Part shown: piece after piece, positions 29,008-58,105 of the stretch
How the letters are laid out: each line of letters begins with the position of its first letter
Numbering within the stretch: the first letter of the stretch is position 1
NCBI GenBank assembly: GCA_963663765.2
Contig: CAXXUA010000005.1
Span: forward strand, 64,001-128,000
Direction of reading: 5' to 3'
Length of the DNA stretch: 64,000 nucleotides
DNA from: Candidatus Poribacteria bacterium
GTDB lineage: Bacteria; Poribacteria; WGA-4E; WGA-3G
Notes under the pieces: generated by a model
Told to the model about the DNA's origin: nothing
Database searches by the model: none
Seen by the model: only the letters and a program-made list of their open reading frames with translations
Program-made: the position numbers and the translations under genes

Positions 29008-29186
29008 CAGGGTTATTTAGTTTTCCTAATGAGCGAATTTTTCAAAATGAAAACCCTCGGTAGGAGCGACCCGTGGAATGCTATTGGGCGAATGCGCGCA
29101 TGGCATTCGCCATGATTCATACCGTTGATTTACCGGTCGCGATTATCTCAGAAAACAGGTAAAATGGGTAAAACTGAATAACCCTG
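29008..29186 (+). mobile_element. MITE family B copy (TIR CAGGGTTATTYAGTTTT) with nested inserts
   Basis: Ends CAGGGTTATTTAGTTTT / AAAACTGAATAACCCTG; homologous to 57944-58105. Confidence 0.8.
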
Positions 29187-29389
29187 TTGCACGCGATTTA
29201 GATGTGCAACAACGTGCTGCATGGCGTATAATGATGAAGATACGTGTAGAGATGGCGAAAAACTCATCGTTATTAGAAGGTATCGTTGAAGATGATGAAA
29301 CTTACATCGGGTGGAAACGCAAGACTGATTACGACCAAAACGAAGATGAACCCCGTAAACGCTGTCGTGGCACCATTGAAAGAGGGTAA
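29187..29389 (+). pseudogene. IS1595-family transposase internal fragment
   Basis: QQRAAWRIMMKIR..EGIVEDDETYIG is near-identical to the copy at 34104-34589. Confidence 0.85.
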
Positions 29390-29404
29390 CGTGCATATCA
29401 CCAC

Positions 29405-30196
29405 CTATGCAGCATCCTTGGCACACCGAAACCCATAAGTTGCAAAGCGGAGAAAAGGTTTATCATAGTATAGGTAATCCGATTCAAAGTGTCTCCGCAG
29501 AGACATCCATCCGCCGCCACGTAGAATCTTTTGCGGTCCCGGTTTGGTGCCGGTCGGTTCTGCTTCTAACCGAAAATCCTTACCTTCATAAGCGTCCGCG
29601 CACCACTGCCACACATTCCCAACAAGATCATAAACGCCTGTAGGACTGACGTTCTTCTCGCGGGTTCCAACAGCGTAAGGTGCTAAGCGCGAACGATAAT
29701 CAATTACCTCAAAATCAAATTCATCTCCCCAAGGATAGCGTTGCTTCGTATCACCTTGGCAGGCGAGGGTCCACTCCGCTGCAGTCGGCAGTCGTGCCCC
29801 CCGCCAATTCGCATAAGCCTCCGCCTCATACCAACTCACACCCGTCACAGGTAGTGCTTCACGATTTAAATACTTTTCACTATATGTTGACGTACACCAG
29901 AACTCATATTTTTCCAGGAATTTGCGTCCTTCTTCTGACCAATACTTTTTCTTCTTGTAGCCACCATCTTCAATAAACTCATTATACTGTTGATATGTGA
30001 CGAGGTGTTTATCAAGGTGGAATGGGGCGACAGTCACTGTTTCCCCAGTGCCAAAGGGGTCTACCGTGCCGCCTTCTATCTTTATCATTTCAGGTTGTTC
30101 CTTTTGTTGTGTCTGTTCATCTTGCTGCGGTCCAGGGAGTTCACAGGAAATAAAAATACTAAGTATTACAAGTTGTATCCATAAGATATTCTTCAT
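29405..30196 (-). CDS. FGE-sulfatase (SUMF1/EgtB-type) domain lipoprotein
   Basis: Motifs PVTGVSWYEAEAYA.W.G.RLPTAAEW, YPWG, DLVGNVWQW, RGGGW, YGFRC; lipobox FISC. Confidence 0.9.
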   Translation of the reverse strand: MKNILWIQLVILSIFISCELPGPQQDEQTQQKEQPEMIKIEGGTVDPFGTGETVTVAPFHLDKHLVTYQQYNEFIEDGGYKKKKYWSEEGRKFLEKYEFWCTSTYSEKYLNREALPVTGVSWYEAEAYANWRGARLPTAAEWTLACQGDTKQRYPWGDEFDFEVIDYRSRLAPYAVGTREKNVSPTGVYDLVGNVWQWCADAYEGKDFRLEAEPTGTKPGPQKILRGGGWMSLRRHFESDYLYYDKPFLRFATYGFRCAKDAA

Positions 30197-31242
30197 GGGA
30201 TTACTACCTTAACGGGGATCGTTATCTCTGGTACATCCGGATGGGTTGTGAATATCTGGATCGTTCCCTCAATAAGTCCAGATGATGGACCGTCGGTCTT
30301 CGGTGTGATAGCAAGTGCCACCTCATGTGCCGTTTGCGGTTCCTTCGAAAGGGACGCAGTTACCGAAAAATTATCTGCAGTTATCTTTTTCAAAGCGAAG
30401 GGGCGGTTGCTATCTGTCCTGATTTGAACCTTCTTCTGCACGCTTTTACCTGAGCCATCCAAAACACCCAGAAACAGGTTCTGTGGTAACACCACAATCC
30501 CACCTAACACGCGACCGCGGAATTCAATTGACATTTCCAAATCATTTGAATCGGTTCCAGGGAGTACTTCTTGTGCTTGTGCGGTAATCGTTAGCGACTC
30601 ACTATATAAGCCTACATTGTTCAAGTTTAAAACTGCTTCACATTCCAAACTCTTGCCTGCAGGTATGATCTTTTTCGATAACGTGACAGCGATGTTTTTG
30701 TTGCTCACCGTGTGCTTGGCTATCTCAACGGCGTTCTTCAAGTTATTTGTAAACTTTATCTTTTTAGAAACAAGTGTTCCTTTTTCAAGTTGCCCTAATT
30801 CAATTTTATTGGGATATGCCACAGGAGGTAGAATAACTCCTGAAACTTGTAATTGCACCATTGGAATAGAAGGATCATTGGTGTAGACGAAGACGTACTG
30901 ACGAAAACCTCCGACATCTCTTTCAACCGCTACCCGAATTTCACCTTTATCCCCTGGTGTTATCTTATCTGAAGAGGTGTTCGTCGCAACGCATCCACAA
31001 TCTGAGTCTATCTTTTGAATGTGTAGTGGGGCATTGCCTTCGTTGGTAAAAGAGAAGGTCGTAGTTATCTTCGAACCGACAATGAAAGGTTCTGCGAATT
31101 TATGCGTTTCTTTTGAAAACACAATTTTAGAGGCGCGATTAGAAGTGCAACCCTGCAACAATTGAAAACTACCAAACATCGTTAAAAACATTAGAAATAT
31201 AGAAAAGTAATACATATATGAATCCCTTATTCCAGCAGTCAA
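30193..31242 (-). CDS. DUF1573 Ig-like domain protein with two further Ig-like domains
   Basis: Motifs F.FTNEGNAPLHI..IDSDCGCV, ITPG..GEI.V, VYTNDP. Confidence 0.85.
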   Translation of the reverse strand: MTAGIRDSYMYYFSIFLMFLTMFGSFQLLQGCTSNRASKIVFSKETHKFAEPFIVGSKITTTFSFTNEGNAPLHIQKIDSDCGCVATNTSSDKITPGDKGEIRVAVERDVGGFRQYVFVYTNDPSIPMVQLQVSGVILPPVAYPNKIELGQLEKGTLVSKKIKFTNNLKNAVEIAKHTVSNKNIAVTLSKKIIPAGKSLECEAVLNLNNVGLYSESLTITAQAQEVLPGTDSNDLEMSIEFRGRVLGGIVVLPQNLFLGVLDGSGKSVQKKVQIRTDSNRPFALKKITADNFSVTASLSKEPQTAHEVALAITPKTDGPSSGLIEGTIQIFTTHPDVPEITIPVKVVIP

Positions 31243-31358
31243 ACTTGTTCTGCTAAATACTTAAAAGAAAACTTGGTGCCTACTGCAGCAAAACATATCA
31301 TAACTCACCGATCAAGCATTGCAGATTAGAAAACTAAAAATTAGAATAGAAAAACGTT

Positions 31359-32444
31359 TCATTTTGTTGTTTCGTTATCTATCTCCTTCTTCGGAATTTC
31401 ATCACGAATCCACTTCTGTCCGCCTCCATCATCGTTAAGTTCTGACTTATCCCAATCGAAGAAATCGATAGGAAGTCCAAGATTGAAGTCCATTTCTTTG
31501 ATCACCATTATGGTACGCCTTCGCTTAAAACCATCTCTACCGCGAAACTCGTGCATCTCACGGACTTTGGGGACGGTGATATTTAAACTGTCAACACGCT
31601 CAAAATCGCTATATATACTTACTAAACGTAACCAATATCCCTCCGCATCCGCATGAGGTGAGTCACTCTTATAATATAACTCTTCACGAGTTACCTCTGG
31701 TAAACCAGACTCAATCTTGACATATAATTTTATTTTTATCTTTTCACCATACAGATAAGTTATGAGATAGATAGGTTCATCAATATTTTCTTCTAATAGA
31801 TGGACTTTGGATTCTGTTACATTAATAAGGTAAGTAGGCAGTATCTTTATCGCCGTAATCACCTCGGGCAAAGTAGGAATGTCACGTATTATAAAGGTAC
31901 CAATTGGAGCATTATTTTTAACTTGTGCTGGTAGGATTTCCTTAAGGGTTACAGTGCCATTTGATGTGAAAAAGGATTGACCACCGCCATTAAAGAAACG
32001 TAATGACTCAAAGGATGGATAGTTTTCAAAACGAGAAATAGCCTCCATACGAAAAGCGTATGGAGATGCCTTTTGAAACACAAGATTAAATTCTACAAAG
32101 GTGAACTTCTTATTAGAATCTCTAAATTTGCCGAACTTTTTTTCTTCTTCAATATGTCTCAAAATATCCTTCCGGAGTCCCTCCGGATTATCGCTTTTCG
32201 GCGGATTCTCACGCAGCTGCCTTTCATAATCTTTTATTAAAAATTGATTTGAATTCCTGATTTCAGGAAAATGTTCATAGTAGAGAAATTTCATTTCTCC
32301 ATCTTGTATCAGAGTTTTCGAATAATTTAACAATTGTATTAGATCTTTCGCATCCACTTGATTCTCCTGTTCTGAAAAAGATTCTTCTATACTTAGACCA
32401 CAGAACATAAGCACTATTGAAAAAAGAAAGATATAAATTCTCAT
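31359..32444 (-). CDS. Secreted hypothetical protein
   Basis: 361-aa ORF with a signal peptide and a C-terminal DFNLGLP.DFF motif. Confidence 0.7.
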   Translation of the reverse strand: MRIYIFLFSIVLMFCGLSIEESFSEQENQVDAKDLIQLLNYSKTLIQDGEMKFLYYEHFPEIRNSNQFLIKDYERQLRENPPKSDNPEGLRKDILRHIEEEKKFGKFRDSNKKFTFVEFNLVFQKASPYAFRMEAISRFENYPSFESLRFFNGGGQSFFTSNGTVTLKEILPAQVKNNAPIGTFIIRDIPTLPEVITAIKILPTYLINVTESKVHLLEENIDEPIYLITYLYGEKIKIKLYVKIESGLPEVTREELYYKSDSPHADAEGYWLRLVSIYSDFERVDSLNITVPKVREMHEFRGRDGFKRRRTIMVIKEMDFNLGLPIDFFDWDKSELNDDGGGQKWIRDEIPKKEIDNETTK

Positions 32445-32690
32445 TAAACTTCCTTCTATAAACTAAAACTGGGTTTAAGAATAAAGATGATTGGAGAACT
32501 CCTATGGTATAATGAAGTACAACCATTTTCCAAACGGAGTTCTCCATGGATAGTATAAAACTATTAGTATAAAACTATTTTACGGTACTGATAACTTCCT
32601 AATCCATTTTGAATTCCGAATGAAAGTCAAAATATTTCCACTTGTGAAGGATAATTTATTCGCATACGCAAACTGCGGACACATTACTGT

Positions 32691-32729
32691 AAAAAAAGTT
32701 TTGCAGAAGTACGACACAGCACTTCTACA
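32691..32729 (-). terminator. Intrinsic terminator after the Cys-rich ORF
   Basis: Minus strand GTAGAAGT-loop-ACTTCTGC followed by AAAACTTTTTTT. Confidence 0.55.
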
Positions 32730-32737
32730 TAAAGTTT

Positions 32738-33013
32738 TTACGTAAAATCTTCCTGATGATAACAATCTTTGAAATTCTCTGTAGATCCACCTGTAGATAG
32801 CTCACTGCATTTCCCCTTTTTGGGATAACCTCCATCTGGATTAGCGGGAACCCAATAACAGTCTATCGTGCCAATCACCTCGTCCGTGCCAGGAGTCATA
32901 AAACACAAATACCCTATACCCTCTTTATCACAATTGCCAGACTTTACAGATTTATATAAGCTTTTGCTGTCACACTCATCCTCGTCATAATTACTACATC
33001 CTCCTATGACCAC
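32738..33013 (-). CDS. Small Cys-rich peptide, probably 5'-truncated
   Basis: 91 aa with 7 Cys; begins VIGG-C; in-frame stop just upstream at a T10 run; terminator downstream. Confidence 0.55.
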   Translation of the reverse strand: MVIGGCSNYDEDECDSKSLYKSVKSGNCDKEGIGYLCFMTPGTDEVIGTIDCYWVPANPDGGYPKKGKCSELSTGGSTENFKDCYHQEDFT

Positions 33014-33049
33014 ATTTTCCCCATCCTTGTAATTTTTTTTTTAATTTGG

Positions 33050-33171
33050 CAGGACTTACGCACCCAACGGTAGGCGTGCTTTGTAAGCGCGCTGGAAGCA
33101 CAAATAATGTTGAAAATTACATCATTTTCATCACAATTCTTGATTAAATCATGAAAACTGCGTAAGTCCTA
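33050..33171 (-). mobile_element. MITE family A copy
   Basis: Ends CAGGACTTACGCA / TGCGTAAGTCCTA; TTTGG on both flanks. Confidence 0.85.
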
Positions 33172-33754
33172 TTTGGTACACAATTTGTCAGTATGTGGCG
33201 CACTGAATATAGTAAGGGAATTAGTCGTTTTGGGATTAAGAATCTCGCCAGAAATTTATTAAGATGAATTCTATAACAGATCAACAAGGGACTATATCCC
33301 GACAGAAGTTATTCAGAAATATTCAGATCGTATAAAAACTCTAAACGAGTTTATAGAAATGCTAACGTTTACTCTTGAATAGTATAAAACTCATGGCATA
33401 GCATAAGGATTCGCCACATTAAAGCATCAAATCTTATATCAAAATTACTTTCTCTTGAAACTTACACTTTCATTGACAAACTTATCAAAGATGTCAATGC
33501 TCCTATAGTTATACTTATAGCACGCCTCTGCCAGATACCTTACTATTACCCATAAGTGGAATTGGAGGGACAAAGGCTCGACATGCTGCTGTAGGAGGAG
33601 TTTCTAACCCCGATAGAGGACAGAAAACTGGTCATAAGAACTAAAAAACCTTGTGAAATTAGTCTAAAAGGCCTATAAAGGTATCCTACATCTAAAATAT
33701 TGGTCAGTTTTCAGGCGTTTTTGAGCAACAGGCACCTACAAAAGACTTAACGGA

Positions 33755-34589
33755 CTATACCCAAAAACTTATGGGTAATAGTAAGGCCAGATACATGGGC
33801 GTATATCCAGTTGAATAGTGATGGTGACTACCATACCAAGCGCGTTTGACAAATGACCAAAATCCTTCAATCTTGTTCGTATGAAGTTCACCTGCTTCCC
33901 ATTGTTCACTTCGGTTCAGAGTTTCGTGTTCCATCTCTTTCCCAATGATATTATATCCTGTAAATTGATCCGTATAGAGTGTTGCATTTTCCGTATCCAC
34001 ATTTTCGCGTATAAAGTTCGCAATCGTTTCACCAGAGATGTCAGGTATCATTTCAGCAACAACGTGTCCATTGCGTGCTACCGCACACCGATAACAGCGT
34101 CTTTCATTGTGCCACGACCGCGTTTACGGGGTTCATCTGCGTCTCGGTCGTAATCCTTCTTGCGCTTTCCCCGATGTAAGTTTCATCAGCTTCAACGATA
34201 CCTTCTAATAACGATGAATTTTTTGCCATCTCTACACGTATCTTCATCATTATACGCCATGCAGCACGTTGCTGCAAACCTAAATCGCGTGCAAGTTGGC
34301 AACTTGATAAACTTTTCTTTGCATTTGCCATCAGCACAATCGCTAAAAACCACAACTGCAGCGGTATCTTTGTGCCTTGAAAGATTGTACCACTGGTCAC
34401 TTTGAACGATGCTCCACAATCCCCGCAGTGCCAGCGTCCAATGCGTCCTGTGCCGCTCTCATTTTTGCGTTTTAGGTGTTTACCTTCACACTTCGGACAT
34501 CTGGACTTATTTCCCCACCGTATCCCCTCAAGATGTTCAGTACACGCCCCTTGATTAGGGAATCGTTCCATTACTTTGATCAAATCCAT
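33755..34589 (-). pseudogene. IS1595-family transposase, frameshifted and 3'-truncated
   Basis: Zn ribbon CPKC..CGDC and HTH, then EADETYIG with a frameshift near 34170; the second frame carries YTD..GY and HTNKIEGFWS.VKR. Confidence 0.88.
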
Positions 34590-34606
34590 CAGATACTCCT
34601 ATTGAT

Positions 34607-35116
34607 GGGTGTCTAAAGTTTTTGCACAGAGGTACAAACTTTTGTTCTCTTTAGTCCCGTAGGGACGCAATGTTTATAGATAGGTGTAATCACCCTCTCT
34701 TGAGTTCCGTAGGAACGACATAGAAGAATAAACATATCGTCCCTACGGGACTAAAGAACTGGGAAGGGTACTTGTTTTCTATAAACATATCGTCCCTACG
34801 GGACTGAAGAGTATGGTTGATATTAACAATATTTCCTTATATTGACACCTATGGGTCTCTGTGCCCGCAATCTCTCATTTAATCAGTTGCGGCGGGGTAC
34901 AGAGACCCCATAGGTGTCAACTTAAGGATTTTACCTCTTGTGGGAGGGGTTTGCAACCCCGAATTTATGCGCTTTTCCGCTCAAATCGGGGTTAAAAACC
35001 CCTCCCACAAGAGAAATGCAAACAATATTTTCTTAAGTTGACACCTATGCGGCGGGGTACAGAGACCCCGCTCTACAATGGAGAATGTGCAGTTTGTGCA
35101 AAAACTTTACACACCC
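34607..35116. mobile_element. Composite non-autonomous element with 22-bp TIRs enclosing REP clusters and MITE C
   Basis: Ends GGGTGTCTAAAGTTTTTGCACA / TGTGCAAAAACTTTACACACCC; internal GTCCCGTAGGGACG-type repeats at about 34654-34805. Confidence 0.7.
34909..35049. mobile_element. MITE family C (TIR CATAGGTGTCAACTTAAG) carrying a REP pair
   Basis: Perfect 18-bp TIR; flanked by the 19-bp direct repeat CGGCGGGGTACAGAGACCC; internal GTGGGAGGGGTTT..AACCCCGA inverted pair. Confidence 0.8.
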
Positions 35117-35133
35117 ACACACCCCTATAGATG

Positions 35134-35162
35134 TTGACACCCTACCTAATCTTTGGTATACT
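35134..35162 (+). promoter_or_regulatory. sigma70 promoter for the WD40 cluster
   Basis: TTGACA-17bp-TATACT. Confidence 0.7.
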
Positions 35163-35230
35163 TTTAAAATACGACAAAGCTTAAAGCATTACAAAAAATG
35201 TGCAGAAAGAATTGAAGGAGAGACTGGACT

Positions 35231-37303
35231 ATGAAGACGAAATCATTTTTGCTTTTCATCCTTTCAATTGCGATACTTGCATTCACCCCATATATTCTTG
35301 CGCAAGAGTCCCCCCAATGGCATCTACCGGAAGGTGCAAAAATGCGCATCGGAAAAGGTAAGATAAATGATATAGCATATTCTGCGGACGGTATGCGTTT
35401 GGCAGTAGCGAGTTCCATCGGAATTTGGTTCTACGATGTGCTGACTGGTAAAGAAGTTGACCTACTCATAGGACATACAGATGAAGTCAGAAGTGTATCT
35501 ATCAGTCCAGATGGGGAAAAAATTGCAAGTGGTAGTGCTGACGGTACTATCCGTCTGTGGGATGCAGACACTGGAGACCATATACACACGATAAAAGCAC
35601 ATACGAGTTCTGTATATAAGGTTGAGTTTAGTCCAGATAGTAAGACAATCGGAAGTGGTGGCGTGGGCAGTTATACCTATCTTTGGGATGCAGACACAGG
35701 AAAACTGCTTCACAGGTTCACTCTGCGTACAAATCAACTTAGATACACATTTGCCCATCCTTGGGTCGGAAGTATGGCTTTCAGTTCGGATGGAAAGATT
35801 ATCGCAAGTGGTGGTTCCCACTCAACTGTTCGTCTGTGGAATGTAGAAACAGGACAATCGGTCCACACGCTTACAGGACACTTCTATTGGATAGAAAGTG
35901 TCACATTTAGTCCAGATGGTAAGACACTTGCAAGTTGTGATGGTTTCGGTACCATTCTACTGTGGGATGTTGACACAGGAAAGCACTTTCGTACTCTTGC
36001 TCTTAAAACAAATCAACACGGGTCAGAGGCACGAAAGGTGGTGTTCAGTCCAGATGGAAATACCCTAATAAGTGGTGGTTCAAACGGTATCATCCGACTA
36101 TGGGACATTAAAACGGGAGAATCACTTCGAACGCTTACAGAACATACGTCAGCGGTTATTAGCGTGGTTTTTAGCCCAGATGGAAAAACAATCGCAACTG
36201 GGAGTGTTGACGGGATCATTCGCATGTGGAATGTAGATACTGAACAGTACTTCCGCATACTTACAGGACACACACCATGGGTCTTTAGTGTAGTTTTTAG
36301 CCCAGATGGAAAAACAATCGCAACTGGAAATAGTGTTGGTATTATCCCTTTGTGGAATGTGGGTACAGGAGAACACTTACACACATTCACAGGACATACA
36401 AGAGAAGTCAGAAGTGTAGTGTTCAGCCAGGATGGAAAAACAATCGTAAGCGGAAGCATAGATGAGACCATTCGTCTTTGGGATGTGGATATAGGACAGT
36501 CCTTCCGCATTCTCAAAGTGCCTACGCGGTGGGCTTTTAGCGTTGCGCTCAGTCCAGATTCAAAAGTAATCGCAAGTAGCAGCGGTTTAGGTACTATTCA
36601 TTTTTGGGACGTTGTCAAAGGACACCATATCCGCACACTCACAGGGCACAAGTCAAATGTCAATAGTGTTGTGTTTAGTCCAGATGGAAAAACAATCGCA
36701 AGTGGAGGTGATGATACAACCGTTCGTCTGTGGGATGTGAACACAGGACAATATATCCACATTTTCAATGGACATACGAGTTATGTCACCAGCGTAGCGT
36801 TTAGTCCGGACGGAAAAACAATCGCAAGTGGGAGTTGGGATAAGACTATCCGTCTATCGGACACAGAAACAAGACAACACTTACGGACACTTACAGGAGA
36901 TACGGATTGGGTTGAAAGCGTAGCGTTTAGTCCGGATGGGAAGAATATCGCAAGTGGTAGCAGGGATAAGACCTTCCATCTTTGGGATATGGAAACAGGA
37001 CTACATCTCCGCACATTCAAAGGACATAAGGGGCGGGTTGGAAGCGTAGTATTTAGTCCAGATGGTAATACACTTGCAAGTGGCAGCGGTGACGGTACGG
37101 TGCTACTGTGGGATATTACACCATCACAATTACCCGAAGATGTTAATAAAGACGGTATTGTGAACATTCAGGATTTGGTTATGGTTGCGAATGCTTTTGG
37201 CGAAGCGGCACCTGATCTTAACGGGGATGGTGTTGTTAATATACAGGACTTGGTAATTGTAGCAACGGCATTTGGTAATACAGCTTCCATCACAGATGAA
37301 TAG
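35231..37303 (+). CDS. Secreted WD40-repeat protein with a C-terminal dockerin-like domain (paralogue 1)
   Basis: Signal peptide; about 13-14 GH..V.SV.FSPDG..IASGS.D.T.RLWD repeats; two D.N.DG.VNIQDLV EF-hand-like motifs. Confidence 0.92.
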   Translation: MKTKSFLLFILSIAILAFTPYILAQESPQWHLPEGAKMRIGKGKINDIAYSADGMRLAVASSIGIWFYDVLTGKEVDLLIGHTDEVRSVSISPDGEKIASGSADGTIRLWDADTGDHIHTIKAHTSSVYKVEFSPDSKTIGSGGVGSYTYLWDADTGKLLHRFTLRTNQLRYTFAHPWVGSMAFSSDGKIIASGGSHSTVRLWNVETGQSVHTLTGHFYWIESVTFSPDGKTLASCDGFGTILLWDVDTGKHFRTLALKTNQHGSEARKVVFSPDGNTLISGGSNGIIRLWDIKTGESLRTLTEHTSAVISVVFSPDGKTIATGSVDGIIRMWNVDTEQYFRILTGHTPWVFSVVFSPDGKTIATGNSVGIIPLWNVGTGEHLHTFTGHTREVRSVVFSQDGKTIVSGSIDETIRLWDVDIGQSFRILKVPTRWAFSVALSPDSKVIASSSGLGTIHFWDVVKGHHIRTLTGHKSNVNSVVFSPDGKTIASGGDDTTVRLWDVNTGQYIHIFNGHTSYVTSVAFSPDGKTIASGSWDKTIRLSDTETRQHLRTLTGDTDWVESVAFSPDGKNIASGSRDKTFHLWDMETGLHLRTFKGHKGRVGSVVFSPDGNTLASGSGDGTVLLWDITPSQLPEDVNKDGIVNIQDLVMVANAFGEAAPDLNGDGVVNIQDLVIVATAFGNTASITDE

Positions 37304-37347
37304 CTACCTAATCTATAGCTTATGACTATAAGAGAAAGGAAAAAACA

Positions 37348-39390
37348 ATGAAGATTAAGTCATCTTTGATTATTTCCCTTTTGTTTGCAATACTTGCTTT
37401 CGTTACAACCACTATTGCACAAGATTCGACACAGTGGCAACTACCAATAGGTGCGAAAATGCGCCTCGGTAAAGGTATATTAAAGGATGTAGAATATTCT
37501 CCAGATGGCACACGTTTAGCAGTGACAAGTTCATTAGGTATTTGGTTCTATGACGCTCACACTGGAAGAGAACTATATCTGATTACTGAACATATAGGTG
37601 CGGTCAATAGTGTCGCGTTTAGTCCGATTGATAAAATATTCGCAAGTGGCGGCAGCGATGGTACTATCCGTCTGTGGGGAATAGAAACAGGAAAACATAT
37701 TCGTACTATCAGAGCACATTGGTATGGAATTAGTAACGTTGCGTTTAGTCCAGATGGAAAAACTATCGCAAGTGTTAGTTCGAATGACTCCATCCGTCTG
37801 TGGGATGCAGACACAGGACAACACATACGAGCTTTTACAGGTTCTACGTCTGGCAGCTTCAAAGTTGTTTTTAGTCCAGATGGAAAAACTATCGCAAGTC
37901 GGGAAGCACACGGTGTGATCTGTCTATGGAATGTGGACTTAGGTGAAAAAATACACACTCTCAAAGCACATCCGTATTGGGTCAGTAATGTTGTGTTTAG
38001 TCCAGACGGTAATGCTGTCGTAAGTAGTGGTTCAGATGATGCCATCCGTTTTTGGGATGTTGATACAGGAGAAAATATCCGTACGATAAATGTCTCAAGT
38101 AATGGTGGCGTTATTGTTAAATTAAGTCCGGATGGAAAGACAATCGCATACGGTATGGGTTATAATATTAACCTATTGGATGTGGAAACAGGACAACACA
38201 TCCGTAAACTGATTGGACATACGTATTATGTCAGAAAGATCGTGTTCAGTCCAGATGGAAAAAAAATCGCAAGTAGCAGTTTGGACAACACTGTCCGTCT
38301 GTGGGTTGCAAACACTGGACAAAACCCTTTGACAATAACGGGGTACACCTCAGACATGCTTACCATAGCCTTCAGTCCAGATGGAAGAATCTTGGCAAGT
38401 GGCAGTATTTCTGGGAACATCCATCTGTGGGATGCGGATACAGGAAAAGAAATTCGCTCATTCAGGTCGCATGTGGACCAAGTCAATAGCGTGGCGTTTA
38501 GTCCAGACGGGAAGATTCTTGCAAGTGGCAGTGCGGACAATTCGATCCACCAATGGGATGTGGACTCAGGACAATACCTCCGCACACTATTAGGACACAT
38601 TTCATGGAACAATGGCAGTAGGCGCAAGTATCAGGCAAATAGCATCGTTTTTAGTCCGGATGGAAAAATGATCGCATGCGGTATTGGAGATAACACCGTC
38701 CATCTGTGGGTTGCAGACACTGGTCAACACATCCGCACTTTCACTGGGCATACCGCTGCAGTCAATAGTGTAGCATTCAGTCCTGATAGCATGATAATCG
38801 CAAGCGGGAGTGATGATAAGACCGTCTGTTTGTGGAATGTGCAAACAGGAGAACAAATCCTTAAATTTTCAGAGCACACGTCAGATGTCCTCAGCGTTGT
38901 ATTCAGTCCGAATGGTAAGCTAATCGCAAGCGGGAGTGATGACAAAACCTTCCGCTTGTTGAATGTGGGCTCTGGAAAACCCCATCTACATACGCCCATA
39001 GGACATGCGTACCGAGTCAATAGCGTCGCATTTAGTCCGGATGGGTACAAAATCGCAAGTGGCACTTCAGATGGGAACATTCGTCTCTGGGTTGTGAACA
39101 CAGGTCAATACATCCGAATCCTCACAGGACACACGTCTGATGTCCAAAGTGTAGCATTCAGCACAGATGGCAAGACACTTGCAAGCGGAAGCAAAGATGG
39201 TACAGTGCTACTTTGGGATATTGTACCTTCTCATCTGCCCGAAGATGTCAATCAAGACGGTGTTGTCAATATATTAGATCTAACTCATGTTGCCTCACAC
39301 TTCGGTGAGTATGGTCAAATCCATTTAGATGTCAATGGAGATGGAATAGTCAATATTTTAGATTTGGTACAAGTCGCAGCGGCTTTTTGA
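37348..39390 (+). CDS. Secreted WD40 + dockerin-like protein (paralogue 2)
   Basis: Same architecture; QWQLPIGAKMRLGKG N-cap and EDVNQDGVVNILDL. Confidence 0.92.
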   Translation: MKIKSSLIISLLFAILAFVTTTIAQDSTQWQLPIGAKMRLGKGILKDVEYSPDGTRLAVTSSLGIWFYDAHTGRELYLITEHIGAVNSVAFSPIDKIFASGGSDGTIRLWGIETGKHIRTIRAHWYGISNVAFSPDGKTIASVSSNDSIRLWDADTGQHIRAFTGSTSGSFKVVFSPDGKTIASREAHGVICLWNVDLGEKIHTLKAHPYWVSNVVFSPDGNAVVSSGSDDAIRFWDVDTGENIRTINVSSNGGVIVKLSPDGKTIAYGMGYNINLLDVETGQHIRKLIGHTYYVRKIVFSPDGKKIASSSLDNTVRLWVANTGQNPLTITGYTSDMLTIAFSPDGRILASGSISGNIHLWDADTGKEIRSFRSHVDQVNSVAFSPDGKILASGSADNSIHQWDVDSGQYLRTLLGHISWNNGSRRKYQANSIVFSPDGKMIACGIGDNTVHLWVADTGQHIRTFTGHTAAVNSVAFSPDSMIIASGSDDKTVCLWNVQTGEQILKFSEHTSDVLSVVFSPNGKLIASGSDDKTFRLLNVGSGKPHLHTPIGHAYRVNSVAFSPDGYKIASGTSDGNIRLWVVNTGQYIRILTGHTSDVQSVAFSTDGKTLASGSKDGTVLLWDIVPSHLPEDVNQDGVVNILDLTHVASHFGEYGQIHLDVNGDGIVNILDLVQVAAAF

Positions 39391-39490
39391 AATCATACAT
39401 CCCATAATAATGTTGATATCCGTAACAATGTCGCTTATCTGACATACCCTTACGTATGAAGAAATACTACATGTATGAAGAAATACTACA

Positions 39491-41503
39491 ATGAAAACTA
39501 AATTATTAATGATTATAACCATTTTATTCTCGATGTTTGCATCTTCGTTTAACATCTCTGCCCAAGATTCTCCGCAATGGAATCTACCAGAAGGTGTAAA
39601 AATGCGCATTGGTAAGGGGCAAACGAATGATATAGATTATTCTCCGGATGGTACATTTTTAGCAGTAGCAAGTTCTATCGGAATTTGGTTCTACGATACA
39701 CAGACTGGTGAGGAACTGGACCTGCTCACAAGTCATAGATCTAAAGTTTTGAGTATTATGTTTAGTCCGGATGGAAAAACTATCGTAGGTGGTTACGAAG
39801 ACAGCACTATCCATCTATGGGATGTGAAAACAAGGCAACATTTACGCACAATCACAGGACATAGGTATCGGGTCAAAAGTATCGTATTCCATCCAGATGG
39901 GAAGATACTTGCAAGTGCCAGTGATGATGGCACAATACGCTTCTGGGATGTGGAAACTGGAATACACCTACGCACAATTACAGGACATAGTAGAGTTATT
40001 AGCATAGTTTTTAGTCCCGATGGAAAAACTATCGCAAGTAGCAGTGAAGGAAACACCATCTATCTGTGGGATGTAAAAACAGGAAAACACCTACAGACAA
40101 TTACAGAATATCGAAATTGGATTACTTCCGTTATGTTCAGTCCAAATGGAAAGACTATAGTCAGTTGTGCTGGCAACATTCACTTGTGGGATGTGGAAAC
40201 TGGGGAAAACATTCTAACTATCACAGAACATCCAAGTTTGAGTGTTGCATTTAGTCCGGATGGAAAGACTATCGCAAGTGGTGGCGGTAATACCATCAAA
40301 CTGTGGGATGCGGAAACTGGTCAAAAGACTCAAATAATCACAGGACATACAGAGTCAATCAATAGTGTAGTATTCAGTCCGGATGGAAAGACCATTGCAA
40401 GCGGAAGTCTTAGGGAGGGTACTATCCGTCTGTGGGATGCTATCACAGGAGATAACATCCACACAATCACAGGACACATGATTGTAACATCTACTGTAGT
40501 ATTCAGTCCGGATGGAAAGACTATAGCAAGTATTAATTCACCCGGTGCCATTCGTCTGTGGGATGCGGATACTGGAAGATTCCTCCAGACACTTGCACAA
40601 CATTCAAGTTCTGCCAATAGCGTCCTGTTTAGTTCAGATGGAAAAACTGTCCTTAGTGGAAGTGGTCGGGATGGCACCGTCCGTTTATGGGATGTGGAAA
40701 CAGGAAAACTACTACGCACAACCACTACGAATACTCAACAAGTACAAAATGTGGTACTAAGTCCAGATGGAAAAGTATTTGCAAATGGGAATAGTAGAGA
40801 TGGCATCATTCATCTATTGGATATGGAAACTGGAAAACTACTGCGTACAATCACAACCAACACAATATGGGTCAATAACATAGTGTTTAGTCCGAATGGA
40901 AAAACCATCGCAAGTGAAGGTTCTGGCAGCCCTATACATCTATGGGATGTGGAAACTGGAAATTTAGTAGGTACATTTACAGGAAGTAGTCATTTGTTGG
41001 TCAGATCTATAGTGTTCAGTCCAAATGGAAAAATTATGGCAAGTGGTAATTCCGATAGTACCACCCGTCTGTGGGATGTAGAAACAGGAAAAAATCTCCT
41101 TATCCTCACATGGCATAGGTCAGGTGTAAAAAGTGTTGGGTTCAGTCCGGATGGGAAAATCATAGCAAGCGGCGGTCATTTTGATGGTTCTATCCGTATG
41201 TGGAATGCGGAAACTGGGCACCACCTACGCGTACTTGAAGGACACACGTCAAGTGTTGAAAGTATCGTATTCAGTCCGGATGGAAACACACTGGCAAGCG
41301 GCAGCAGCGATGGAACGATACTCCTATGGGATAATTCAACCACCCACTTATCCGAAGATGTCAATCAGGATGGTGTTGTTAATATATTAGATCTGACTCA
41401 TGTTGCTTCAAACTTCGGTAAGGATGGACAAAACGGCGCGGATGTCAACGGTGATGGGACGGTAGATATATTAGACTTGGTGCAGGTCGCTGCGGCATTT
41501 TGA
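39491..41503 (+). CDS. Secreted WD40 + dockerin-like protein (paralogue 3)
   Basis: Same architecture; QWNLPEGVKMRIGKG and EDVNQDGVVNILDL. Confidence 0.92.
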   Translation: MKTKLLMIITILFSMFASSFNISAQDSPQWNLPEGVKMRIGKGQTNDIDYSPDGTFLAVASSIGIWFYDTQTGEELDLLTSHRSKVLSIMFSPDGKTIVGGYEDSTIHLWDVKTRQHLRTITGHRYRVKSIVFHPDGKILASASDDGTIRFWDVETGIHLRTITGHSRVISIVFSPDGKTIASSSEGNTIYLWDVKTGKHLQTITEYRNWITSVMFSPNGKTIVSCAGNIHLWDVETGENILTITEHPSLSVAFSPDGKTIASGGGNTIKLWDAETGQKTQIITGHTESINSVVFSPDGKTIASGSLREGTIRLWDAITGDNIHTITGHMIVTSTVVFSPDGKTIASINSPGAIRLWDADTGRFLQTLAQHSSSANSVLFSSDGKTVLSGSGRDGTVRLWDVETGKLLRTTTTNTQQVQNVVLSPDGKVFANGNSRDGIIHLLDMETGKLLRTITTNTIWVNNIVFSPNGKTIASEGSGSPIHLWDVETGNLVGTFTGSSHLLVRSIVFSPNGKIMASGNSDSTTRLWDVETGKNLLILTWHRSGVKSVGFSPDGKIIASGGHFDGSIRMWNAETGHHLRVLEGHTSSVESIVFSPDGNTLASGSSDGTILLWDNSTTHLSEDVNQDGVVNILDLTHVASNFGKDGQNGADVNGDGTVDILDLVQVAAAF

Positions 41504-41546
41504 TTCACAAACTCTTGAGTCATAAGGAACCCATACAAAACAGAAA

Positions 41547-41568
41547 GGACAGGTATATACACCTGTCC
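41547..41568. terminator. Hairpin between the convergent WD40 and glnB genes
   Basis: GGACAGGT-atatac-ACCTGTCC; TTTCTGTTTT follows on the minus strand. Confidence 0.55.
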
Positions 41569-41603
41569 CAACCATTTATTCAAACGCATGACAAAGATAC
41601 AGA

Positions 41604-42014
<411 letters not shown>

Positions 42015-42202
42015 TTATATTGTTTTATGGACGGATCTGAAATTCGCCCTTATATAAGAACTGAGGCATCAACTAAACCACAATGATCATCAATACTAAG
42101 ATCGTGTGAAGCAGAACCCCGCGCTGGAAATAGTATTTCAAAAACACACGTTTATGCAATGCTTCAGTACGGGGTTCATAAACCAAAATAATTGGGTCCT
42201 AA

Positions 42203-42319: not shown

Positions 42320-42322
42320 GTC

Positions 42323-46279: not shown

Positions 46280-46290
46280 GTCAAATTATC

Positions 46291-46749: not shown

Positions 46750-46754
46750 CTTTC

Positions 46755-47588
46755 TTATGTGCCGGTGATGATTTTCTTAATCCCTTCATTCAGACTACCA
46801 GACCTATATCCTTGTAAGTCAATTGTAACGTGTGCATAGCCAAGGGTTTTAAAGTGAGTGTTGATTTTGTTTCGTGCATCTTTCTGTTGAAGTCGATAAA
46901 TCTCCTCAGCTTCAAGTTCAATCCGAGCAAGGTCTTCATGGTGACGCACACGAAATTGACGAATGCCTAAATCGTAAAGAAATTGTTCCGCAGCATCAAC
47001 TTGACGTAGTAATTCACGGGTGATACGCATACCGTAAGGGAAACGAGAGGATAGGCAGGCAAAAGCAGGTTTATCCCAAGTTGGTAATTCCCATGCTTTT
47101 GAAATCTCACGTATCTCTGTTTTTGTCAAGTCAACATCAATCAGTGGTGCTTTGATCCCCATCTGTTTCGCCGCGTCCATTCCGGGACGATGGTCACCAA
47201 CATCATCAGGAATTGCTCCATAGACAATTGTTCCAACGTTATACTTTTCTGCGATTGGATTTAATTTATCAAACAACTCTGTCTTACAAAAGAAACACCG
47301 ATTAGTTGGATTGCTTGCGTAACCCTCCAATTCCAACTCCTCTGTGTGAACCGTTTCAAAGCGGATACCGATCTGTTTGGCAATATCCTGTGCAGCCTTC
47401 ATCTCACGGATTGGATAGGAATCAGAAATCGCTGTAACCGCAAGGGCATTTTCCCCTAATGCGTTCTGGGCTGCCTCTGCAAGGAATGTGCTATCAACAC
47501 CACCAGAAAACGCTACAATAACCTTTTCGTAACCACGCAGACATTCATAAAGTCTATTTACTTTTGTTTGTAATAATTGAGGGAACAT
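46755..47588 (-). CDS. larE: ATP-dependent sacrificial sulfur transferase, LarE/TIGR00268 family
   Basis: PP-loop AFSGGVDS, NRCFFCK, D..DHRPG, WDKPAFACLSSRFPYG, GYRSGS. Start reassigned to ATG 47588. Confidence 0.88.
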   Translation of the reverse strand: MFPQLLQTKVNRLYECLRGYEKVIVAFSGGVDSTFLAEAAQNALGENALAVTAISDSYPIREMKAAQDIAKQIGIRFETVHTEELELEGYASNPTNRCFFCKTELFDKLNPIAEKYNVGTIVYGAIPDDVGDHRPGMDAAKQMGIKAPLIDVDLTKTEIREISKAWELPTWDKPAFACLSSRFPYGMRITRELLRQVDAAEQFLYDLGIRQFRVRHHEDLARIELEAEEIYRLQQKDARNKINTHFKTLGYAHVTIDLQGYRSGSLNEGIKKIITGT

Positions 47589-47628
47589 CAGTTCACATCC
47601 TATCTTTCTGTCCGATACCTTGCACATT

Positions 47629-47845
47629 CAGGACTTATGCACCCAACGGTTGGCGGGGAATGCCTAAAGAAGCATGCGCGTATGGCATGCTCCATGATTC
47701 ATACCCGGGGAATACCATAAGGTATTCATACCGTTGATTACTTGATTTGGTGCTTTGTAAGCGCGCTGGAAGCACAAATAATGTTGAAAATTACATCCTT
47801 TTCAGCACAATTCTTAATTAAATCATGAAAACTGCGTAAGTCCTG
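47629..47845 (-). mobile_element. MITE family A copy with a ~95-bp nested insert
   Basis: Ends CAGGACTTATGCA / TGCGTAAGTCCTG; flanks ACATT and ACAAT. Confidence 0.85.
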
Positions 47846-47865
47846 ACAATACAATATGATAGTAA

Positions 47866-48501
47866 TTAGTATGGACGATCTGCTTTCTGGATTTGCTCCA
47901 GTTCACTCCTTAGGAGTTGTCTTTTTATTCCACTAATCCTGTCAATAAAAAGCGTTCCGTTGAGATGGTCAATTTCGTGTTGTAACACGCGTGAAAGTAA
48001 TCCTGAGGCTTCAAACTCAATATACTCTCCGTTCAATATCATTGCTTTCACAGCAATCTTCTCCGGACGTTTCACATCTGCATGAAGGTCAGGTATACTC
48101 AAACATCCTTCCTGGGCAACTGATTCTCCTTCAGAAGTTAGTATTTCAGGATTAAACAACATCAACGGATCAAATTCTTCGTCTTCATCATCACCTAAAT
48201 CAACAATCAAAAACCGCTTTAGAATCCCAACCTGTGTTGCTGCGAGTCCGATACCATTACCAGTCCCATAGAGTGTCATAAGCATATCTTCAGCAAGTTT
48301 TATTTCTGCTTCGGTTATTTCCTCAACAGGTTCAGCTCTTTTGCGTAATACTGGATCGCCATAATATCGGAGTTGTAAAGGGGATGTTTTTGATAGGTGT
48401 GGTCCTTCATCTACACCTTGGTCAGCACTTTGTATGTTTTTGCGTTTTCTTTTTACTTTAGACATAACGTTGGGTATTTCTCCAGATTCTTTTCTCAACA
48501 A
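47866..48501 (-). CDS. def: Peptide deformylase (start possibly ATG 48465)
   Basis: Motifs GIGLAATQVG, EGCLS, QHEIDHLNG. Confidence 0.97.
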   Translation of the reverse strand: MLRKESGEIPNVMSKVKRKRKNIQSADQGVDEGPHLSKTSPLQLRYYGDPVLRKRAEPVEEITEAEIKLAEDMLMTLYGTGNGIGLAATQVGILKRFLIVDLGDDEDEEFDPLMLFNPEILTSEGESVAQEGCLSIPDLHADVKRPEKIAVKAMILNGEYIEFEASGLLSRVLQHEIDHLNGTLFIDRISGIKRQLLRSELEQIQKADRPY

Positions 48502-56128: not shown

Positions 56129-56372
56129 TCTGCTATCACCAATCCATATATGGATTGAATTGGCAATCTTAAGCATAGAAAAATTATGGTAGATAACCTT
56201 ATGTATATGTATTCCCTCAATATCAAGGAGTCAATAGGTTTAGATTTCAACTCTCAACTGAAATTGAACTCTCAAATACCTATCCTACTAAAACTTCCGC
56301 TTTTTCAATTGACAGACTTTTTTTACCGAGATGCTTTTCAAAGTAAAAGCATGATAGGAGGATATACTAATA

Positions 56373-57920
56373 ATGGAAAAGGAGATACTTATTTCTGACG
56401 ATGAGTATGAAACAAGATGTGCTGTTCTTGAAAAAGGAATACTCAATGAAATTCACATTGAACGAAAAGCGACAAAAACAGTATTAGGAAATCTATATAA
56501 AGGACGCGTTGAAAACGTCCTACCCGGCATGCAAGTCGCTTTCGTTGATATTGGTTTAGAACGACACGCTTTTCTACATATTTCTGACCTAAAATATAAT
56601 AATTCCGAAAATGGGAATTCGGACGACGGTTTGCCAACTTTAGATATGCAGGCAACACCAACAAAAAAATCAAGGGGAGGAAGAGGATTCCCATTCCTCA
56701 TTACCGATCTCATCTCAAAAAATCAGGAACTATTGGTACAAGTTGGAAAAGAACCTATCGGAAGCAAAGGAGCACGGGTTACAAGCAATATAACCTTACC
56801 CGGACGCTATGTTGTTTACCTGCCGAACTCAACTACTATCGGTGTGTCACGCCGAATTGAGTCTGAAACCGAACGTGACAGATTGCGCGACTTAGCACAA
56901 AAATTAAAAGCTGACGTTGAAGGCGGGTTTATTATACGAACCGCAGCTGAAGGCTTGAGCGAAGATGAATTCGCAACAGAAATCCAATCTCTGTTCAATC
57001 AATGGAAACAAGTCAGAGAACGCGCAAAACGAAAAGGCGCTCCTATACTAATTAACAGAGATGTGAGTTTCGCAAATCGAATCGTACGCGACATGCTAAC
57101 AAAGGATGTTAAGCAACTCCTCATAGATTCAAAATCCAGCTATAATGAAACAGTTGAATATGTCACATCAGTAATGCCAAACATGCTGGAGCGAATAAGT
57201 CTTTACACCGAAGACACCGCCCTTTTTAAAACCTATGGTGTAGACCAAGAATTACAACAAGCACTCGGTGAAAAAATTTGGCTCAAGTGCGGCGGCCACA
57301 TCATCATTCAGCAAACTGAGGCAATGGTCTCAATTGATGTCAACACAGGGAAATTCGTCGGAAAATCTGACCCTGACAACACAATCCTAAGCGCAAACCT
57401 TGAGGCAGTTGATGAAGTCGTCCGGCAAATTCAACTTCGCGATTTAGGCGGCATTATCGTTGTTGACTTTATTGACATGGATGAACCCGCACATCGCAAA
57501 CAGGTTTTCAAATTGCTGCAGGAAGCATTACGCAAAGACAAAGCACGCACCAATATCCTTCGATTTTCAGATTTAGGACTCGTGGAAATGACCCGACAAC
57601 GTACACGCCAAAGCTTATCCACATTGCTTACAGAACAGTGTCCATACTGTGAAGGACATGGCACTGTTTTATCAATAGAAACTGTAGTTATCGGATTGTT
57701 GCGAACTATAAAAAGGGCATACCAACATACTCGCCAATCCAAATTGCGAATTATAGCGAATGATCAAATCGTGTCACATCTAAACGCACAAATGTCCGAA
57801 AAATTACGAGAACTGAAAAGATCATTAAAACTGCAATTAACACTTGAACCCGACGCGGACCTACATCTTGAAGACTACAGAATCTTCGCCGCAAACGGTG
57901 AAGAACTGTACTTGGATTAA
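56373..57920 (+). CDS. rng: Ribonuclease E/G family (RNase G-like)
   Basis: Motifs GNLYKGRV..VLPGMQ.AFVDIG, KEPIGSKGAR, IDVNTG, GGIIVVDFIDM, GLVEMTRQR, CPYC.G.G. Confidence 0.93.
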   Translation: MEKEILISDDEYETRCAVLEKGILNEIHIERKATKTVLGNLYKGRVENVLPGMQVAFVDIGLERHAFLHISDLKYNNSENGNSDDGLPTLDMQATPTKKSRGGRGFPFLITDLISKNQELLVQVGKEPIGSKGARVTSNITLPGRYVVYLPNSTTIGVSRRIESETERDRLRDLAQKLKADVEGGFIIRTAAEGLSEDEFATEIQSLFNQWKQVRERAKRKGAPILINRDVSFANRIVRDMLTKDVKQLLIDSKSSYNETVEYVTSVMPNMLERISLYTEDTALFKTYGVDQELQQALGEKIWLKCGGHIIIQQTEAMVSIDVNTGKFVGKSDPDNTILSANLEAVDEVVRQIQLRDLGGIIVVDFIDMDEPAHRKQVFKLLQEALRKDKARTNILRFSDLGLVEMTRQRTRQSLSTLLTEQCPYCEGHGTVLSIETVVIGLLRTIKRAYQHTRQSKLRIIANDQIVSHLNAQMSEKLRELKRSLKLQLTLEPDADLHLEDYRIFAANGEELYLD

Positions 57921-57943
57921 CATCAACAACTCTGTCAAAAAGA

Positions 57944-58105
57944 CTGGGCTATTTAGTTTTCCTAATTTTTGGATTTATGAAAAAGAAACCCCGCGGCAGG
58001 AACGACTCGGGGAATGCCAAAAGGCATTCATACCGTTGATTTCTTGATTTACCAGTCACGATTTTCTCAGAAAACGGGTAAAATGGGTAAAACTGAATAA
58101 CCCTG
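57944..58105 (+). mobile_element. MITE family B copy with a nested hairpin insert
   Basis: Ends CTGGGCTATTTAGTTTT / AAAACTGAATAACCCTG; 9-bp TSD TCAAAAAGA. Confidence 0.85.

Follow-up and report, generated by a model that had tools for sequence, protein, structure and literature searches.

How does a hairpin module of about 35 nucleotides (nt) come to occupy the same points inside unrelated repeats? The question is raised by a 64,000-nt stretch of the genome of a Candidatus Poribacteria bacterium (contig CAXXUA010000005.1, positions 64,001 to 128,000; hereafter the window), in which an original prediction had described such a module, here called M1, within two families of miniature inverted-repeat transposable elements, MITE A and MITE B. 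We analyzed the window together with its source genome (G000; 6.35 Mb in 15 contigs, 97.8% complete) and other Poribacteria genomes (among them G001, G010, G016, G022, G024, G041 and G045). The comparisons reported here lend good support to the view that M1 is a distinct inserted micro-element with structure-linked, C^G-directed placement, which was then multiplied by hitch-hiking.

Anatomy of M1 in the window

The M1 consensus spans 35-36 nt and comprises a 5' C-GGG, a 7-bp hairpin (GAATGCC/GGCATTC) with a free loop of 4-7 nt, the spacer ATACC, the tail GTTGATTT and 0-2 further bases; copies in the window follow the layout C-GGGGAATGCC-loop-GGCATTC-ATACC-GTTGATTT. The 16-mer ATTCATACCGTTGATT matches the window four times against an expectation of 0.09, a count reached in none of 100 shuffles, and simple M1 units folded as single-stranded DNA form the 7-bp hairpin with energies of -5.3 to -7.2 kcal/mol (z -2.4 to -3.0).

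The module was seen at all four places originally claimed for it. At 29072-29131 (+) it splits one half of a repetitive extragenic palindrome (REP), REP-B, inside MITE B, and reads as a 5' C, a broken 5' arm GTGGAATGC, a loop, an additional hairpin termed layer 3, ATTCATACC and the tail GTTGATTT. At 42257-42294 (-) it occupies site 1 of MITE A (GGTAGGC^G) with the compensated arms GAATACC/GGTATTC, and at 47655-47749 (+) it forms a block of the architecture U-C-U-t-t, with two hairpin units (47655-47705 (+), carrying layer 3, and 47707-47732 (+), with arms GAATACC/GGTATTC) and two tails, GTTGATTA and CTTGATTT. The copy at 58008-58050 (+), with the loop AAAA and two tails, splits a degenerate REP-B half, again inside MITE B. 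A fifth copy, missed in the original prediction, lies downstream of the gene for transfer-messenger RNA (tmRNA) at 9835-9890 (-); it is degenerate and tail-less and also carries layer 3.

The host repeats likewise proved to be as described. Six copies of MITE A are present in the window, two of them filled and four bearing the uninterrupted site GGTAGGCGTGCTTTG at the same point. The filled copies span 42203-42319, with the terminal inverted repeat (TIR) CAGGACTTAYGCA and a flanking duplication of GTCCTAA, and 47629-47845; those with site 1 empty span 7955-8076 (empty site 8044-8058), 10060-10181 (10149-10163; only one TIR matched), 23096-23217 (23115-23129) and 33050-33171 (33069-33083). MITE B is found at 29008-29186, where it has TIRs resembling CAGGGTTATTCAGTTTTA and holds REP-B, M1 and layer 3, and at 57946-58105. 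The REP said to be split by M1 in MITE B is indeed intact near position 236, as an empty REP-B doublet at 236-279 (GGTAGGAGCGACC-TC-CCGGTCGCGACC...GGTCGCTCCTACC), and filled copies lack T or TC of this form.

Two further observations concern the surroundings and the tail of M1. The tmRNA gene (9367-9721 (+); Rfam RF00023, 163 bits) is the sole match of an Rfam search of the window at the gathering score, in which M1 matches no family, and the degenerate M1 with layer 3 lies about 115 nt 3' of it. On the minus strand, the M1 tail (for example at 42259-42271) is one mismatch from what we take to be the IHF-type consensus, and may be a putative IHF site.

M1 copies, subtypes and relatives in the source genome

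The source genome contains 493 exact copies of ATTCATACCGTTGATT, and a count anchored on the 5' and 3' parts gives 724 hairpin units in 550 blocks, of which 420 are single, 109 double, 14 triple and 7 larger, with a maximum of 11 units. The architecture U-t leads with 275 blocks, followed by U-C-U-t-t (77), U-t-t (73) and a lone U (42). Exactly two tails are present in 83 of the 109 two-unit blocks, and the 77 of the U-C-U-t-t type have abutting hairpins with the tails piled at the 3' end; ATTCATACC occurs 765 times and is followed by GTTGATTT in 466 cases and by the next unit, CGGGGAAT, in 118. Neighboring blocks no more than 400 nt apart share their orientation in 89 of 99 pairs, and arrays are direct. 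The GC skew of the assembly is too noisy to orient replichores; in the complete genome G022, the M1 positions listed are on mixed strands. Only 20 of 504 blocks fall inside open frames of at least 200 codons, although such frames span 75.5% of the genome, and M1 is thus extragenic. It would be a non-coding, non-autonomous micro-element.

Among 642 simple units, the inner part is most often GCC-TAAAT-GGC (156), GCC-AAAA-GGC (137) or GCC-TTAAT-GGC (64), with GC-CATACGC-GC (42), ACC-ATAA-GGT (25) and GCT-TTAT-AGC (20) among the further subtypes. The original prediction had called for a check of covariation, and compensated stem changes are seen in M1 arms genome-wide. In 524 simple units, 3533 of 3668 stem cells pair, compared to a shuffle mean of 3441 and maximum of 3457. 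Fully paired arms are of three types only, GAATGCC/GGCATTC (361), GAATGCT/AGCATTC (25) and GAATACC/GGTATTC (20), and the one-sided intermediates between them number 4-9 copies each. These compensated changes would fit a hairpin requirement in the multiplication of M1; since template-directed quasi-palindrome correction yields the identical pattern, the covariation is no proof of selection.

The tail extends beyond M1. It occurs 1279 times in the genome, against 413 for the reversed control, and follows M1 475 times, M0 (CGACAAATGC-CATACGC-GCATTTGGC) 131 times, M0b (CAGAAGC-CAAACGC-GCTTCTGAC) 15 times and M0c (CGAATGC-CATAGGC-GCATTCGGC) 12 times. Stems vary by paired changes among M0, M0b and M0c, and the tail is the best-conserved portion. 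M1, M0, M0b, M0c and layer 3 are members of one small superfamily, with an AATGC-type hairpin in all and the tail in most.

A third family of TIR-bearing MITEs, with the ends ATGAAGATTAAT...ATTAATCTTCAT, is inserted in the A/T-rich loop of M1 itself (for example at C2:89668-89857, C4:1092170-1092740, C11:2738-3485 (-) and C5:782360-783199 (-) of the source genome). M1 is thus a target as well as a guest.

Filled and empty host sites

In the source genome, M1 occupies invariant positions in nine or more unrelated host repeats, and these repeats also exist in empty form. Hosts include three GTAG-REP families with their own genes for REP-associated tyrosine transposases (RAYTs), the paralogue M0, TIR-MITEs and the tail of M1 itself. 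Alignment of filled and empty sites, proposed with the original prediction as a means of defining the boundaries, returned empty counterparts for the main hosts. In REP-A and site 1 of MITE A, the empty form GGTAGG-CG-TGCTTTG corresponds to the filled form GGTAGG-CGGGG...GATTTGG-TGCTTTG. The M0 loop is empty (CCATA-CG-CGCATTT) in 54 copies and filled in 64, the CTCTACC host is empty (CTCTACC-CG-ACCTACG) in 18 and the AGAGACC host is empty (AGAGACC-C-CGCCC) in 6 and filled in 7; empty REP-B (GCGACC-TC-CCGGTCGC) and REP-C (TGTAGG-AG-CGATCTCC) are represented by 366 and 92 copies, respectively, and filled copies of these two and of the CTCTACC host are present as well. Where the target is CG, the inserted sequence reads precisely GGGG...GTTGATTTG, with the C on its left, the G on its right and an ambiguity of one base. 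These filled/empty comparisons revealed neither a TIR nor a target-site duplication (TSD) on M1, so that the original statement that both are lacking holds for M1, while the host MITEs A and B have both.

To the left of M1 stands a C in 432 of the 496 canonical blocks; counted by distinct flank class, the figure is 147 of 196. The tetranucleotides upstream differ (AGGC 241, ATAC 60, ACCC 57 and TCCC 19 of the 496). The original prediction had every insertion falling 3' of a GTAG-like motif. This is true of the window copies, but genome-wide GTAG or GCAG is found within 15 nt upstream in only 289 of the 496 blocks (58%), and the GTAG rule therefore belongs to the commonest hosts and not to M1. 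The feature common to M1 insertions is the C^G junction, nearly always after C and usually before G. Furthermore, the flanks pair over at least 5 bp beside the junction in 93 of the 496 blocks, the corresponding counts being 139 of 2480 for randomly re-paired flanks and 8 of 496 for a displaced point. In those 93 blocks M1 is placed at a hairpin apex; REP-A, the biggest host class, is a non-apex site.

Hosts and subtypes within and among species

The diversity of M1 within single hosts bears on whether its copies go back to few events. REP-A hosts 198 blocks with at least ten loop types, REP-B hosts 30 with at least ten loop types, and M0 hosts 66 with at least five (TTAAT 37, TAAAT 12, AAAA 3, plus arrays), and the TAAAT subtype is found in at least seven host classes. 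MITE A, a 122-nt TIR-MITE with 272 copies genome-wide, 120 of them with M1, has two distinct M1 sites, TAGGC^GTGCT and TAAGC^GCGCT. We inferred a tree of the MITE A backbone from 230 of the 272 copies (42 were excluded by length filters) after cutting out the M1 blocks. The filled state requires 58 changes on this tree, compared to 64-75 in the five printed shuffles, and no alignment column outside the junction distinguishes filled from empty copies. As the tree is poorly resolved, it indicates that there is no single filled clade and falls short of proving many gains.

Other species present M1 with the same ends in other settings. In G001, it lies in AATCC^GCG repeats, with the subtype TCAAT occurring 12 times; in G024, it lies in the REP-C loop GGGAACTCC^GATTCCC, with the subtype TTGAT occurring 10 times. 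In the latter genome, 15 of 29 pattern matches, including all ten TTGAT copies, are clustered within about 115 kb (C1:4.35-4.47 Mb). The original prediction had named, as the finding that would overturn it, descent of all occurrences from one or two ancestral events. At genome scale this scenario is rejected by the many hosts, by the several subtypes per host and by the different hosts used in G001 and G024.

Each of the 24 other genomes sampled from the genus has the 16-mer ATTCATACCGTTGATT, with copy numbers between 1 and 405 (493 in G000). None of the 16 genomes sampled from three further families of the order has it, and the reversed control had 0 matches. A 19-mer of M1 is found in 26 of 27 other genomes of the genus and in 25 of 26 of a second genus, compared to 0 of 7 from four further genera, and a 20-mer has at least 91 matching stretches across species genomes, 79 of 80 among the matches listed being from Candidatus or uncultured Poribacteria. 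Orthologous genes of M1-bearing species are about 77-84% identical.

Layer 3

The original prediction also placed a further hairpin in the 3' arm of M1, and its core is present at 29092-29106 and 47674-47688, as well as, with one mismatch, at 9853-9867 (-), against 0.09 matches expected in the window. Its arms differ between the two first copies and remain complementary, as had been noted (GGCGAATGC/GCATTCGCC versus AGCATGC/GCATGCT). At 29090-29114 (+), form a2, a 25-nt insert reading GAATGC-GCGCATG-GCATTC-GCCATG, separates GGC from ATTC in the 3' arm of M1; at 47669-47696 (+), form a1 reads GAAGCATGC-GCGTATG-GCATGCTCC-ATG, with an uncertain left boundary. The insert is defined by copies of M1 hosted in REP-C with the loop AATA, 11 of which are identical and empty and one of which has GAATGCGCGTATGGCATTCGCTATG between GGC and ATTC, so that layer 3 is a 25-nt insert at GGC^ATTC. 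The core is found in three settings, namely within the M1 3' arm and, read as reverse complement, in M0 and in the M1 variant whose loop is CATACGC, which identifies layer 3 as a member of the same superfamily with its hairpin flipped.

In folded copies with layer 3, the M1 hairpin is broken and a layer-3 hairpin of 7-9 bp stands in its place. The source genome has 81 copies of layer 3 in the M1 3' arm. Form a1 (arms GAAGC/GCTCC) accounts for 47 of the 81, always behind the loop TAAA, and is largely one composite lineage, located behind at least four different left neighbors. Form a2 (arms GGCGA/TCGCC) has 15 copies in at least five loop backgrounds. The two forms differ by two stem pairs changed on both sides and one changed on one side only. 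In addition, one layer-3 unit is nested in another, and two copies are mirrored, lying in the M1 5' arm after GAAT, as expected if the target is readable on either strand of the palindromic stem.

Orthologous sites and passenger spread

The closest relatives, G045 and G016, have orthologous genes 90-93% identical to those of the source genome and matched stretches 84-95% identical. MITE A at 42203-42319 is absent from the orthologous site in both; MITE A at 47629-47845 is absent in G045, and G016 carries a different MITE there; and MITE B at 57946-58105 is absent from the orthologous site in G016. The MITE B composite at 29008-29186 has a 100% identical twin of 180 nt elsewhere in the source genome (C5:24791-24970), which points to a very recent transposition of MITE B. 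Taken together, the absence of these MITEs in relatives and the identical twin indicate that much of the spread of M1 is hitch-hiking, with nested composites copied whole. On this comparison, all M1 copies in the window were carried to where they now lie inside two TIR-MITE families, by a transposition that is presumably of the DDE type.

Three intergenic positions seem prone to such events (window 42097, 47628-47853 and 57946-58105), with another MITE or a repeat pile at or beside the position in G016 or G045. Four sequencing runs that contain the stretch were compared with window positions 28500-48499 for population polymorphism. All consist of short contigs, the listed pieces of which end before the three repeat blocks (for example at 29129, 42257/42268 and 47628/47658) and continue past them, and none of those listed bridges a block.

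Search for the enzyme

We searched for an enzyme that could act on M1, starting from the suggestion of the original prediction that a RAYT or other Y1 transposase (TnpA), an IS110 transposase or a reverse transcriptase might be flanked by the same motif. The source genome has six matches to Y1_Tnp: four of the insertion sequence (IS) type IS200/IS605, the ends of which are unrelated to M1, one intact RAYT with REP-C arrays on its flanks (C4:621598-622074) and one RAYT fragment with a frame change, at a contig end behind a REP-A array (C10:24955-25277). A RAYT start truncated by a MITE, beside REP-B (C5:1704530-1704673), was found only by tblastn with the RAYT-C protein. There are thus three RAYT lineages, each with its own GTAG repeat family. 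Across the genus, Y1_Tnp of any kind is matched in 27 of 31 genomes (E<=1e-5), and RAYT homologues are present in 22 of the 31, with their own GTAG-type repeat at each of 30 loci examined.

An HUH enzyme of the Y1 type, either a RAYT or an IS200/IS605-like transposase acting in trans, is the best fit among known enzymes, given that M1 has neither TIR nor TSD, is hairpin-dependent, shows a REP-like GGTAT plus stem and often lies next to GTAG feet, and that a reverse transcriptase is absent. We hold this assignment only tentatively, with chances well short of even, because the association tests were negative, and several results weigh against it. M1 was the flanking repeat proper to a RAYT at 0 of the 30 loci from 22 genomes, where it occurs only as a guest in other repeats. 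No Y1_Tnp match (E<=1e-5) was obtained in G001 (97% complete), G010, G024 (a single contig) or the incomplete G041, and exact copies of the 16-mer number 97 in G001, 109 in G010 and 143 in G024. The co-orientation of 89 of 99 neighboring block pairs leaves no inverted doublets of the kind formed by REPs in hairpins (REPINs), the foot motif on the minus strand of M1 is GTAT and not GTAG, and the three biggest M1 arrays (11, 9 and 7 units) lie beside ordinary genes. The genes at these arrays encode a dehydrogenase, a WD40 protein, an amidohydrolase and an ABC-2 protein, with a DDE transposase 2.5 kb from one of them.

The other candidates fared no better. The source genome has 0 matches to DEDD_Tnp_IS110 (PF01548) and 0 to the reverse transcriptase family PF00078, the latter arguing against an RNA route. 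A search of the same genome for a coding element bounded by M1 found none. As for an autonomous parent element, split M1 halves lying 133-839 nt apart enclose the third-family MITE and REPs and no gene, and this candidate was rejected.

Proposed mechanism and alternative explanations

On balance, and with moderate confidence, we favor the explanation that M1 is an inserted, non-autonomous micro-element placed at fixed points in a structure-linked manner, by an activity in trans, and then multiplied as a passenger. M1 is inserted whole, at C^G and without TIR or TSD; primary insertion would take place on single-stranded, folded DNA, through a nuclease/ligase recognizing the M1 hairpin plus tail. 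Inside a MITE or REP, M1 is multiplied further as a passenger, and layer 3 lies flipped at GGC^ATTC in the 3' arm of M1, substituting its own hairpin for that of M1. The site-specific, structure-dependent mobile hierarchy originally envisaged is retained here as regards the separate units, fixed points, empty sites and compensated stems, and is qualified in that much of the spread is as a passenger and the enzyme tests were negative. A novel kind of enzyme, distinct from Y1/RAYT, IS110, DDE and reverse transcriptase, that would paste a folded hairpin plus tail of 25-36 nt at C^G without target duplication is a further candidate for this activity, with chances about as good as those of a Y1 enzyme or slightly below.

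A number of results sit poorly with simple insertion. Filled REP-B and REP-C are short of 1-2 nt of the empty form, and the right junction is host-dependent (nothing, G, GG, A or C). The U-C-U-t-t blocks, 77 of the 109 doubles, are unlike plain self-insertion of a 36-nt unit, and M1 occurs 0 times in the identical loop CATAC^GC of its own variant (42 copies), compared to 62 times in M0. Two further results limit the evidence. Nearly every block is situated in a repeat: genome-unique 14-mers on both flanks are found in 41 of 550 blocks, which by eye are mostly degenerate repeats or false matches. In addition, no orthologous site with an M1-only difference was found: syntenic DNA of G045 and G016 differs by whole MITEs, an M1 in unique context (C5:500154) has no homologous region in five relatives, and the region of C6:186618, also checked for such a difference, is repeat-rich and non-syntenic.

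An alternative is a scenario with no dedicated enzyme, in which rare illegitimate entry was followed by templated copying, through gene conversion or template switching, among copies of the host repeats, and in which quasi-palindrome correction would produce the paired stem changes of M1. More than 90% of M1 blocks are within repeats at fixed points, the enzyme searches were negative, junctions vary among host families with 1-2 nt lost in REP-B and REP-C, and filled and empty MITE A share a common backbone (58 changes versus 64-75 shuffled, and no diagnostic column outside the junction). This scenario has to contend, however, with at least nine host classes, plus the hosts of G001 and G024, that have only C^G in common and receive identical, exact M1 ends; with a few insertions in apparently unique DNA, such as that into a unique hairpin at C5:500154 and one in G001; with an exact 19-mer conserved across two genera; and with the 62 filled copies of M0, as against an identical loop in the M1 variant that is never filled. 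We consider it rather improbable. A purely passenger history, in which all M1 copies go back to one or two ancient events and were only copied along with their host MITE or REP, appears far less probable. It would account for the window copies, all in MITEs that are absent at orthologous sites of G045 or G016, for the composite with a 100% identical twin, for the single loop type of the copies hosted in REP-C (11 of them identical) and for the near-single lineage of layer-3 form a1 (47 of 81, always behind the loop TAAA). It is contradicted by at least nine host classes that each have empty forms, by several subtypes per host with one subtype in at least seven hosts, by two separate sites in MITE A, by the different hosts of other species and by the lack of a backbone clade of filled MITE A copies.

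The persistence of M1 raises a different alternative, which is compatible with an insertional origin: M1 might be mainly a host-selected module, combining a protein site with a hairpin and acting in nucleoid structure, transcript ends or replication. Two genera retain its exact sequence in 51 of the 53 genomes sampled despite an orthologue identity of about 77-84%, it is strictly extragenic, and its tail is the most conserved part of the superfamily and, on the minus strand, may resemble an IHF-type site. A copy number that differs between species of a single genus, from as few as 1 to as many as 493, copies inside other selfish repeats and in tandem piles, and the lack of an Rfam family match at the gathering score speak against this possibility, to which we attach little weight.

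Comparison with known systems

In the literature that we searched, in one search among the best 20 of 519 results, no paper linking Poribacteria with REP, MITE or palindromic intergenic repeats was found, and the M1 strings were not found in it. As far as PMC3116915 and PMC3733652 describe them, REPs and REPINs are extragenic palindromes of 20-40 nt with hundreds of copies and no TIR or TSD, associated with RAYT genes of the Y1 HUH type. M1 resembles them in being a short extragenic palindrome of high copy number, with a 7-bp stem and no TIR or TSD, and its minus strand, GGTAT plus stem, parallels the GGTAG plus stem of the three REP families of the source genome. In contrast, the M1 tag is GTAT, whereas REPs carry GTAG or CGTC (GTAG or GCAG in those three families); M1 flanks no cognate RAYT (0 of 30 loci), whereas the RAYTs of the source genome are flanked by REP-A, REP-B and REP-C; and M1 occurs in direct piles instead of inverted doublets, has a long conserved tail and sits inside other REPs.

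IS1397 is an insertion sequence that targets REP hairpins. The same targeting is described for insertion sequences of the IS110 family (PMC12288879). Both share with M1 a site-specific insertion into palindromic repeats, although they are kilobase-sized and have their own transposase gene, and the source genome lacks a DEDD_Tnp_IS110 match. The IS200/IS605 family and its non-autonomous derivatives offer another comparison (PMC6006769). Likenesses to M1 are insertion without TIR or TSD, dependence on a DNA hairpin and, less clearly, a fixed base 5' of the insertion; M1, however, has a single hairpin without distinct left and right ends, and M1-rich genomes lack a Y1 match. TIR-MITEs of the DDE type have the TIR and TSD that are present in the hosts MITE A and MITE B and absent in M1, and retro-elements are set apart by the lack of a reverse transcriptase match in the source genome. 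M1 fails at least one tested defining feature of each of the REP/RAYT, IS200/IS605-derived, TIR-MITE, IS110 and retro-element families.

Few DNAs with apparent mobility are as small as M1, and an enzyme able to paste some 36 nt into structured DNA at a defined dinucleotide would be relevant to mobile-DNA biology and to genome engineering. If a new kind of enzyme is indeed at work, the M superfamily would comprise the smallest autonomous-looking substrates of a new DNA-insertion mechanism. For annotation, caution is advisable, as much of the "MITE diversity" here consists of nested micro-insertions, and short-read assemblies break there.

The closest analogue of M1 would be found among heterocystous cyanobacteria, in the small dispersed repeats of 21-27 nt that Elhai et al. 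reportedly described in 2008 in Nostoc punctiforme and its relatives. To our knowledge, elements so small, inserted at fixed points and without target duplication have been detailed only on that one occasion, and with no enzyme tied to them. The two systems are alike in being very small, hairpin-forming and extragenic, in lying inside MITEs and each other at fixed points and, as is said of the cyanobacterial repeats, in lacking target duplication. This nesting bears out the analogy drawn in the original prediction, as an analogy only: the hosts of M1 are Poribacteria, another phylum; M1 measures 35-36 nt and layer 3 25 nt; and M1 has a conserved 3' tail, a C^G junction and GTAG-REPs as frequent hosts. 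A new insertion mechanism, if real, might also explain the cyanobacterial repeats. Poribacteria would be a second, independent case besides these, with a strong comparative handle: the exact module is present in over 50 genomes, which belong to two genera and have between 1 and 493 copies each, it is missing from four sister genera, and its hosts and subtypes are species-specific. Given this range of copy numbers, the M1-free genera and the M1-rich genomes without Y1, the enzyme could be found by phylogenetic profiling.

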